Virus record (IMG/VR): IMGVR_UViG_3300009514_001427
Reading direction: 5' to 3' (one strand)
Source of the DNA: a virus
DNA length: 64,000 nucleotides
The position numbers and the translations under genes are program-made. The notes under the pieces are model-generated. The model was not told the DNA's origin. It ran no database searches and was given only the letters and a program-made list of their open reading frames with translations. Shown piece by piece: positions 6,078 to 7,250 of the stretch (positions are counted from its first letter, which is position 1; each line of letters opens with the position of its first letter).

Positions 6078-7250
6078 ATGTCATGGTTGCAACGGATAGC
6101 TCAAAGGTACGAAGACACCAAATACTGGGGACGATCATTTCGTCAGCAGAATCCTGATTTTGCTGGTGGGTTTGAAGTTTACCAATCTCCTCATTTCCCG
6201 CACGTTTTCTTAGGTGGCGAGCAAGAGCTAGACGAAGCCGAAGAGAAGGCTGGTCAGCCTATGTGCAAAATCGTTGATTGTCGGGATTTGCCCGAAATTG
6301 ACGCAGAGAATCCTTCCTGGGATTACGGCTTCTACGCGACTGTTAAAGCCAAATTTGACAAAAAGGTCAAACAGCTCGCTGGGACCATTCAATCGGCAGA
6401 TTGCCCAATTTACGTCCATTGTGCTATGGGGGCGAATAGGAGCGTTTCTGTCCTGGCCGCAGCAATTTCCCTCTTGACAAATCAACCGATTGACACTATA
6501 CTGTCGGACATGAAACAGTCGAGGATGGTCGTCAATCCTCAAGATCCGTATTATCTCATGGCGTTGGAAGAGAGTCCTGCTGAATCTCCAGAGTTCAAAG
6601 AGCGTCGTTATTTGGAGTTAGATCAGGATTTTCCGTTGGTACAGCCTGGTTTGCCCGAAGAAGAATCGTTTCTTAATAGGGCTGAAACCCGTAATTGGTT
6701 GCAAAGAATGGCACAACAAAAAACGCTGATTGTTAGTCGCGGACCATCTGGCTCTGGAAAAAGTTCCATGAGTCGCAAATTGAGCGAACAGCTCAATGCT
6801 CCCGTATTCACAACTGACGATTTTTTCATGCAGAGTGGGTCTTACCAGTTTGATCCGAGTCAATTGGGTCAGGCTCACGAATGGAATCGTCAAAGAGTTG
6901 AGGAGAGTATGAGAGGTGAAACGCCTCTAATCATCGTAGATAATACCAATACGCAGTTTTGGGAAATGAAGCCATACGTTCAATTGGCTCAGCAATACGG
7001 GTATGCTGTTGATTTCAAGGAGCCCGAATGGCATTCCGACTTAAAAACTCCAGAGGGTGTCTGGAACGTAGACTTCCTGGAATCCATGCAAGATCAACCA
7101 GATCGAGAAAAGAGTCTGCCTCGACACATACTAGAACAGATGGTTAGCAGATACGAATACAACCCCTCAGTAGAAGCCGTTTTACAATCAGAGAGACCAG
7201 AGCGCCCTGCACGAAAACGAATAGACGATGAGCTGGAGGAGCGTGCTTGA
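6078..7250 (+). CDS. leader-tagged PTP/dual-specificity-type phosphatase fused to P-loop (AAA_33/PNK-like) kinase
   Basis: N-term MSWLQRIA; PTP signature VHCAMGANRS (C-x5-R-S); Walker A GPSGSGKS; IIVDNTN kinase motif. Confidence 0.65.
   Translation: MSWLQRIAQRYEDTKYWGRSFRQQNPDFAGGFEVYQSPHFPHVFLGGEQELDEAEEKAGQPMCKIVDCRDLPEIDAENPSWDYGFYATVKAKFDKKVKQLAGTIQSADCPIYVHCAMGANRSVSVLAAAISLLTNQPIDTILSDMKQSRMVVNPQDPYYLMALEESPAESPEFKERRYLELDQDFPLVQPGLPEEESFLNRAETRNWLQRMAQQKTLIVSRGPSGSGKSSMSRKLSEQLNAPVFTTDDFFMQSGSYQFDPSQLGQAHEWNRQRVEESMRGETPLIIVDNTNTQFWEMKPYVQLAQQYGYAVDFKEPEWHSDLKTPEGVWNVDFLESMQDQPDREKSLPRHILEQMVSRYEYNPSVEAVLQSERPERPARKRIDDELEERA

Follow-up and report, generated by a model that had tools for sequence, protein, structure and literature searches.

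The DNA examined here, referred to below as the window, is a 64,000-nucleotide (nt) stretch of the IMG/VR virus record IMGVR_UViG_3300009514_001427. It belongs to a large phage-like genome with many auxiliary genes; the source contig is 153 kb, and one relative reaches 557 kb. On the plus strand at 6078 to 7250 lies an open reading frame (ORF) of 390 amino acids (aa), which an earlier note had read as a protein-tyrosine/dual-specificity-type cysteine phosphatase fused to a polynucleotide kinase (PNK)-like P-loop kinase, the whole preceded by a short leader peptide. The motifs and the two-domain layout that it named are present as stated. In an AlphaFold2 model based on 48 homologues, with a mean predicted local distance difference test (pLDDT) score of 83.9, the protein forms two separate globular domains (aa ~30 to 185 and ~205 to 385), and both aa 1 to 17 and the linker at aa 186 to 203 fall below a pLDDT of 50. 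A single polypeptide thus holds two unrelated catalytic domains, and its relatives reach three to five modules and up to 1020 aa. The features of the gene are as follows.

6078..7250, plus strand: the 390-aa ORF, with an ATG start, in the order leader, dual-specificity phosphatase (DSP), linker, second leader, PNK-clade kinase.
6078..6128, plus strand: N-terminal leader MSWLQRIAQRYEDTKYW, aa 1-17; in the model, a short helix (pLDDT <50) that is not packed against the domain.
6165..6632, plus strand: DSP-type cysteine phosphatase domain, aa ~30-185; model pLDDT ~90 in the core, identified by profile and fold matches.
6285..6320, plus strand: candidate general-acid loop D70-L-P-E73...W81, proposed from alignment (family 'LPE(x)3-7W' versus 'IPISDHW' in MKP).
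6414..6443, plus strand: phosphatase P-loop VHCAMGANRS, aa 113-122 (C115 nucleophile, R121, S122), from the motif and the family alignment.
6633..6686, plus strand: disordered interdomain linker, aa 186-203 (pLDDT <50).
6693..6716, plus strand: internal second leader NWLQRMAQ, aa 206-213, directly before kinase strand beta1.
6717..7232, plus strand: PNK-clade P-loop kinase domain, aa ~214-385, from AAA_33, PHROGs, Foldseek, and the family profile.
6741..6764, plus strand: Walker A GPSGSGKS, aa 222-229 (K228, S229), from the motif and the family alignment.
6816..6821, plus strand: D247-D248 of TTDDFF; D247 is invariant in the family and lines up with D35, the general base of T4 Pnk.
6930..6950, plus strand: IIVDNTN, aa 285-291 (D288-N289-T290 invariant), aligned with 'ISDTN' of T4.

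The domain search that the earlier note had proposed returned Pfam AAA_33 above its cut-off (aa 217-311; 1.9e-15, 57.8 bits) and DSPc below its gathering score. In PHROGs, the protein matched phrog_2071 ('ATPase,' 8.5e-29) and phrog_505 ('polynucleotide kinase,' 1.9e-10). The top Foldseek matches of the kinase in the PDB were CthPnkp of C. thermocellum, T4 Pnkp, mammalian PNKP, the Mucorales tRNA-splicing RNA 5'-OH kinase, Pnkp1, and the tRNA kinase PSTK. When a 29-member kinase family profile was searched against the PDB, T4 Pnk was the best match (3.8e-10), followed by Pnkp1 (1.5e-6), CthPnkp (4e-6), and PSTK. The alignment with T4 Pnk is in register at the Walker A Lys/Ser, at D247 (D35 in T4), and at 'DNTN' ('SDTN' in T4), all of which are invariant in the family, as are G225, G227, and K228 of Walker A. 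The family also has invariant residues of its own, namely, H267, N270, R273, and a WEMKPY motif. R343, within DREKSLP, falls in the region aligned with the T4 lid arginine R126, where the alignment is loose. The possibility that this kinase sides with the zeta toxins, raised beforehand in the earlier note, was contradicted by Pfam, Foldseek, and the profile, which all place it with polynucleotide kinases; Zeta_toxin appeared neither at an expect (E) value of <=1 in Pfam nor in the top 50 Foldseek matches.

The nearest named relatives of the kinase are eukaryotic N4BP2L1/2-like proteins, with 37 to 40% identity along the full kinase domain (E, 1e-24 to 1e-26). The N4BP2/NONU-1 kinase domain has been assigned to the PNK clade and is predicted to phosphorylate RNA cleavage products (10.1101/674358). 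In cultured phages, small stand-alone homologues lie directly 3' of an RNA ligase gene in Aeromonas phage phiA009 and Klebsiella phage KpS11; in KpS11, a protein with a cyclic-phosphate-processing domain is encoded between the two. A tblastn search of cultured phages with the full protein matched the kinase half only, so the phosphatase family is absent from them at E <=1e-5, and a scan of IMG/VR with the same protein found distant kinase-only loci and nothing more. By its sequence, the kinase belongs to a poorly characterized, N4BP2/NONU-1-like branch of the PNK clade, and its most probable substrates are RNA or DNA ends with a 5'-OH group. The reaction would move the gamma-phosphate of ATP onto these ends, as expected of the stand-alone phage relatives in RNA-ligase cassettes.

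The phosphatase half is far more divergent from known DSPs. The target sequence alone matched Pfam DSPc with 26.2 bits (7.6e-6), under the 33.5-bit gathering score, and PF00782 is on record for an identical database protein and for most relatives. Its family comprises 63 clusters, all metagenomic and from phage-like contigs. In an alignment of 32 members, three elements are invariant: VFLGG, the P-loop H114-C115-x2-G118-x-N120-R121-S122, and R149...P154-x-D156-x-Y158. They match the three motifs that are hallmarks of DUSPs. Searched against PDB sequences, the phosphatase profile retrieved MKP/DUSP10, DUSP9, DUSP7, and vaccinia VH1 (E, 1e-4 to 1e-2). A model of this domain alone had a core pLDDT of ~90, and its top 50 Foldseek matches, which included MKP5, DUSP9/15/22/28, VHR, VH1, and archaeal protein tyrosine phosphatases, all have the DSP/PTP fold (E, 1e-3 to 8e-3; template modeling [TM] score, 0.40 to 0.63). 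Judged by its motifs, the domain is a catalytically intact yet very divergent DSP. The family-wide 'LPE(x)3-7W' loop, which aligns with the MKP general-acid loop 'IPISDHW,' carries a conserved acidic residue (Glu or Asp; E73 in the target), which we propose as the candidate general acid. D82, in 'SWDY,' had also been considered for this role and was dropped, as it is not conserved in the wider family alignment.

The earlier note had likened the architecture to baculovirus and eukaryotic RNA end-processing enzymes. On such an account, the cysteine phosphatase would act as an RNA 5'-tri- or diphosphatase beside the kinase and remodel 5' ends in the manner of BVP, PIR1, or the capping enzyme. The CX5R phosphatase with an Asn-Arg-Ser ending to its P-loop, an ending also seen in RNA triphosphatases, and its fusion to a nucleic-acid kinase speak for it. 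However, the searches led to MKP/DUSP, VHR, and VH1 instead, and BVP, Mce1, and PIR1 appeared neither among the 42 PDB profile matches at E <=1 nor among the 50 best fold matches. The P-loop reads HCAMGANRS rather than the HCTHGxNRT of RNA 5'-triphosphatases. To our knowledge, the BVP/Mce1/PIR1 subgroup also lacks an acidic residue in the general-acid loop, where the present family has one. We see no specific tie in the phosphatase sequence to RNA 5'-end enzymes, the proposed likeness is not supported, and we consider 5'-end remodeling very improbable.

The leader places this gene in a larger context. The peptide M(S/N)W(L/F)(Q/E)(K/R)I opens eight consecutive plus-strand genes, of which the target is the first (starts at 6078, 7250, 10288, 10482, 11015, 11614, 12087, and 13802), and the target contains a ninth copy internally, at aa 206 to 213. 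Packing is tight, and neighboring genes share ATGA overlaps. The seven that follow the target, an SNF2 helicase and six of no assigned function, are listed here.

7250..10291, plus strand: SNF2-family helicase, MNWFEKIAQ..., with a leader-like tail ...RQASSWLARVL.
10288..10485, plus strand: 65-aa ORF, MNWLQSELK..., with an ATGA overlap at both ends; its homologues in loci L008 and L002 are without the leader.
10482..11015, plus strand: 177 aa, MNWLQRIIAQ, no family match.
11015..11617, plus strand: 200 aa, MNWLQRIAT, no family match.
11614..12090, plus strand: 158 aa, GTG start, VNWLQKISN.
12087..13805, plus strand: 572 aa, MSWLQKIAM, phrog_11974.
13802..14431, plus strand: 209 aa, MNWLQKIAQKPMAL.

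The leader had been noticed in the earlier note, and it proved to be real and far above chance. In a six-frame translation of the window, the motif [MVL][NS]W[LF][QE][KRS][IE] occurs eight times, where composition predicts 0.013 occurrences and 200 shuffles gave a mean of 0.01, and all eight copies fall at the starts of these consecutive plus-strand ORFs. The homologues retrieved hold 49 N-terminal and 33 internal copies, the latter with the junction consensus S-[NS]-W-L-Q-[KR]-[IV]-[AS], often after SPFRRAS; every module junction of the related multimodule proteins carries the leader. It is present on nearly every member of the phosphatase family, with W3 at least 90% conserved down to 35% identity, and the closest stand-alone kinases also begin with it.

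These observations bear on whether the leader might instead be an element of the DNA or RNA, such as a repeat, a recombination site, or a translation-initiation cassette, or else an artifact of annotation. Its location at gene starts and the ATGA overlaps, which make translational coupling plausible, are what such an account can draw on. Against it, synonymous codons vary freely among the copies and the 40 nt upstream are unrelated, indicating that it is the peptide, rather than a DNA repeat, that is under selection. The peptide is likewise kept in proteins that are merely 35 to 40% identical, and it is kept at internal junctions and C termini, where no initiation takes place. We regard a nucleic-acid-level explanation as effectively refuted. 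A terminator-like hairpin with a 10-bp stem (6032-6056, plus strand) lies just 5' of the target start and might delimit the array's transcription unit at its 5' end; scans for promoters and terminators around the array found sites no more numerous than in shuffled sequence.

Leader arrays of 4 to 11 or more genes were found at five related loci (L001, L002, L008, L009, and L013). A metagenome-wide scan with the back-translated leader retrieved 16 contigs where about 1 was expected, 15 of them holding two to nine leader genes; contig L099 has nine in 6.9 kb. IMG/VR returned no matches to a strict leader DNA pattern and, with a looser pattern, 71 single matches, which is about chance level, and no arrays. 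Nor were leader arrays found in cultured phages, and a full-text search found the peptide unmentioned in the searchable literature. Several large array proteins (SNF2, PcfJ-like) also have a leader-like C-terminal tail after R-Q/R-A-S, and some carry the motif at both termini. These tails, each running to the stop codon, read ...RQASSWLARVL in the window (10250-10291), ...RQASNWLKRLQKPS and ...KRSNWLTRIS in L002 (~14020-14064 and ~19060-19096), and ...RSSWLQRLAEEVES in L009 (~14050-14092).

The window and these five loci form a set of six syntenic loci with a common gene order (Phenol_MetA_deg-like, Hc1, ..., phosphatase, then the plus-strand gene run). The association of kinase and phosphatase varies across them. 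In the window, L001, and L002, one gene encodes both domains as a fusion; in L008, the kinase has its own gene, of 174 aa, next to that of the phosphatase; and no kinase is present in L009, where an ART-PolyVal gene comes next, or in L013, where the next gene is an intein-containing SNF2 helicase. The separate kinase of L008 starts with MNWMQKLSQQKLLIVVRGPSGSGKS. Together with NWLQRMAQ inside the target, this indicates that the target is a head-to-tail fusion of two leader-bearing genes, with the internal NWLQRMAQ being either a relic or a working copy of the kinase gene's own leader.

The same variability extends beyond the syntenic set. About 5 of the 63 phosphatase-family clusters carry the kinase, and most members stand alone or are fused to many unrelated modules; in P0094, for instance, the partner is a homologue of the window gene at 12087. 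In P0003 and P0100, which are also phosphatase-kinase fusions, a small additional beta-rich module stands between the two domains. When 1.84 billion representatives were searched exhaustively with phmmer, 2183 relatives passed E <=1e-10, most of them related to the kinase, and the best 150 of these 2183 included no further fusion of DSP and kinase. P0158, with two matched stretches, had looked like a second such fusion and was rejected, as its second module is not a kinase. The beta-rich module, of ~90 aa (…DLLHQEKQWR..VSTPGSLV.H…GWTGKV.EL.GDPVNGG.VLVE…), is itself mobile. It occurs before, between, or after phosphatase and kinase modules in P0003, P0008, P0011, P0013, P0017, P0022, P0100, and P0158, always set off from them by the leader.

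Our preferred interpretation, which we hold with a little better than even confidence, is that the target arose recently as a non-obligate fusion of a divergent DSP and a probable 5'-OH polynucleotide kinase, each a leader-tagged cargo module, and that it heads an array of leader-tagged effector genes. Two neighboring cargo genes of such an array would have fused, evolutionarily recently, in a large uncultured phage. Each module has its own ~9-residue amphipathic M(S/N)WLQ(K/R)IAQ, one at the N terminus and one in the disordered linker. Because each module has its own leader and sits within a tagged array, the two activities are most likely independent of each other, and the modules most likely act as parts of a variable toolkit of the polyvalent-protein type. 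In related genomes, the leader heads or joins PcfJ, ParB_N, ART-PolyVal, and many modules of no assigned function.

A different interpretation, and the one to which the earlier note had inclined, is a dedicated bifunctional end-healing enzyme, in which a 5'-OH kinase and a cysteine 3'-phosphatase act on the same broken RNA, the DSP replaces the usual HAD domain, and the product feeds an RNA ligase encoded elsewhere. The kinase indeed belongs to the PNK clade and has relatives in RNA-ligase cassettes, and the conserved acidic residue in the general-acid loop suits an enzyme that hydrolyzes phosphomonoesters whose leaving group is an alcohol. Four of the six loci have DSP and kinase either fused or side by side, and a fusion of the reverse order exists in P0084. 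The phage also has 16 tRNA genes (38324-62781, all on the minus strand and interspersed with protein genes), which implies an investment in protecting translation.

The fusion pattern argues otherwise. A dedicated unit fits poorly with a kinase that is fused in three syntenic loci, adjacent in one, and missing from two, and with a phosphatase that mostly stands alone or has many unrelated partners. The junction in the target keeps a full leader, as does every other, unrelated fusion, and the nearest folds of the phosphatase are protein phosphatases. A Pfam scan found no HAD domain in the target, so this is not the HAD (DxDxT)-kinase fusion of a T4-type Pnkp, and a complete enzyme of that kind is already encoded in the window, as the earlier note had recognized:

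55404..56330, minus strand: canonical Pnkp with an N-terminal kinase, which matches mammalian PNKP at 7.5e-17, and a C-terminal HAD-IIIA phosphatase; it lies among the tRNA genes.

The earlier note had also suggested a search for an RNA ligase, and none was detected in any larger ORF of the 64-kb window. Finally, a survey of phage RNA repair names HAD, calcineurin-like, and HD phosphatases and no DSP (PMC7824862). We judge a dedicated end-healing enzyme to be improbable, if still worth serious attention.

The nearest phosphatase structures lend themselves to yet another explanation, in which the two domains form a host-manipulation pair. The DSP would act on host phosphoproteins, such as those of Ser/Thr/Tyr-kinase defense or capsule signaling, and the kinase on a small molecule or a nucleotide-derived signal. 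The closest phosphatase structures are protein DSPs, including viral VH1, the cargo of the array is similar to polyvalent proteins that alter components of the host, and the kinase profile gives weak matches to nicotinamide riboside kinase and to the kinase domains of PFKFB. However, its score against T4 Pnk is five orders of magnitude better than that against these small-molecule kinases, and the phage relatives of the kinase are tied to RNA ligases. This explanation strikes us as rather unlikely.

To return to the cargo-module interpretation, we infer by analogy that the leader most likely works as a targeting or docking tag shared by the array proteins, with the closest precedent in phage T4. 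The T4 internal proteins are diverse anti-defense proteins that share a capsid-targeting sequence (CTS), are loaded into the head, and are coinjected with the DNA (PMC3012670). Polyvalent proteins of phages and conjugative elements are likewise predicted to be injected together with DNA (PMC5512222). A broader proposal, which we put forward tentatively and at less than even confidence, is that the leader is a portable tag of very large uncultured phages that gathers exchangeable enzymes into the virion or another common assembly, to be delivered when infection begins, and so makes up a 'noncovalent polyvalent protein' system. The tagged set would consist of the phosphatase-kinase, the SNF2 helicase, ADP-ribosyltransferases, and PcfJ/ParB-like proteins. 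Array genes would fuse and split freely because the tag at junctions and at some C termini doubles as a linker or processing site, possibly for the adjacent subtilase described below.

Several observations weigh against the cargo-module interpretation or its extension to a targeting tag. The CTS of T4, MKTYQEFIAE, shows no sequence relationship to M(S/N)WLQ(K/R)IAQ; the leader is not followed by a conserved Glu cleavage site, and the window contains no head genes. At the distant locus L010, a leader-like N terminus occurs on the phosphatase only and there is no array, which suggests that the leader might have originated as part of the enzyme families themselves. The substrate-binding R38 of T4 Pnk is not conserved, its aligned position being F250. 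Finally, the order DSP then kinase, fused or adjacent, in those four loci, together with P0084, a eukaryote-like protein that is an independent, reversed fusion of a kinase followed by a classical DSP, suggests that the two domains may have a functional partnership or affinity.

Immediately downstream, the array is abutted by a convergent gene:

14894..16045, minus strand: subtilase (Peptidase_S8, 6.5e-59), with its position conserved in L008.

Its best curated match is a type VII secretion system mycosin (5e-56), under that family's cut-off, and its C terminus weakly matches a PHROG annotated as 'virion structural protein.' Speculatively, the subtilase could be a processing protease for the array. 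Among the array genes, homologues of the one at 12087 occur in KVP40-like Vibrio phages. These are unannotated and have no leader, and so give no hint to its function. Related arrays, or the regions just upstream of them, carry SNF2, PcfJ, ParB_N, ART-PolyVal, and ArdC-N/MPTase-PolyVal, domain types characteristic of polyvalent proteins that hint at packaging and delivery with the DNA. Beyond the subtilase lies an ADP-ribosylglycohydrolase (phrog_6572, 6.6e-30; 17301-18185, minus strand), in the same relative position in L008 and L009 and near arrays that can carry an ART-PolyVal gene. The SNF2 helicase of L013 (10582-15048, plus strand) is interrupted by an intein with a LAGLIDADG endonuclease. 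L013 is the 557-kb relative (GCA_054390495.1) and has been binned as a Promethearchaeota metagenome-assembled genome; the 'archaeal' binning of this phage-like contig is questionable.

The remainder of the window shows the breadth of the auxiliary gene content. A single ORF of 3808 aa (18530-29956, minus strand) starts with MATYYFDATNGLDSNLGT..., and its neighbors at 30111-32411 have no family match. A metabolic cluster follows (32490-36231, minus strand) with a formyltransferase (5.9e-35), a glutamine synthetase (2.3e-72), and a FolD-like methylene-tetrahydrofolate dehydrogenase/cyclohydrolase; a phosphoribosyltransferase is encoded at 61134-61655. An MVP homologue of 875 aa (48132-50759, minus strand) matches MVP_shoulder (1.7e-23), Vault_3, and the Vault repeat and has no PHROG match. 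A DUF6915 protein (1.4e-38; 53401-53913, minus strand) adjoins the Pnkp/tRNA region. Three tandem paralogues of 115, 533, and 538 aa (56812-60390, plus strand) have no Pfam or PHROG match and share the N terminus MAL(L/I)xK..(Q/E)..LST.....V(D/N)LTAPGLGTP and the C-terminal end ...GVDNV(N/D). A release-factor-like protein (63320-63856, minus strand) has an RF-1 domain (1.1e-25) and the end of PCRF. Ribosomal protein S21, a cold-shock domain protein, and a ribosome recycling factor are encoded by relatives, so that the genome has a set of translation-related genes of the kind typical for very large phages.

No phage RNA-repair architecture that we found in the literature pairs a DSP-type cysteine phosphatase with a PNK-clade kinase. 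As the kinase falls in the poorly characterized N4BP2/NONU-1 branch, a small, soluble phage version could be a convenient biochemical model. The more important point is that a 9-residue N-terminal peptide marks a long, variable effector array of huge uncultured phages and survives at fusion junctions. If the leader is a targeting tag, the repertoire of delivered or early-acting effectors could be listed from metagenome sequence, and the leader itself would be a candidate portable tag for loading foreign proteins.

Compared with known enzymes, the kinase resembles T4 Pnk and the PNK clade in its P-loop kinase fold, its Walker A GxxGSGKS, the Asp after strand 2, and DxTN. It differs from them in having no HAD or metallophosphoesterase partner, in the unconserved R38, and in its own invariant residues. 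In N4BP2/NONU-1, the eukaryotic kinase is paired with an Smr nuclease and CUE, whereas that of the target is paired with a DSP and a leader, in a phage. The phosphatase shares with the DSPs (MKP5/DUSP10, DUSP9/15/22/28, VHR, and VH1) the HCxxGxxR(S/T) signature, the 'VFLGG' N-terminal strand, the C-terminal R...P.D.Y, and the fold. It is, however, very divergent from them (E, ~1e-3; TM score, 0.5 to 0.63), and its candidate general acid is a Glu in 'LPE...W.'

The array as a whole has two nearest counterparts. Like the polyvalent proteins of Iyer et al. (2017), it combines disparate enzymatic domains, and the same domain vocabulary recurs in the arrays and upstream of them. Unlike in those proteins, the domains are mostly separate genes joined by a common leader, in a 'disaggregated' form with occasional fusions; DSP, PNK, and the leader are unmentioned in the polyvalent-protein paper (PMC5512222). 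Like the CTS-bearing proteins of T4, the array proteins are clustered, are otherwise unrelated, and share only a short N-terminal peptide of ~10 residues. In contrast to the T4 system, the arrays are longer, at 8 to 11 or more genes, and the leader is found also at fusion junctions and at some C termini.

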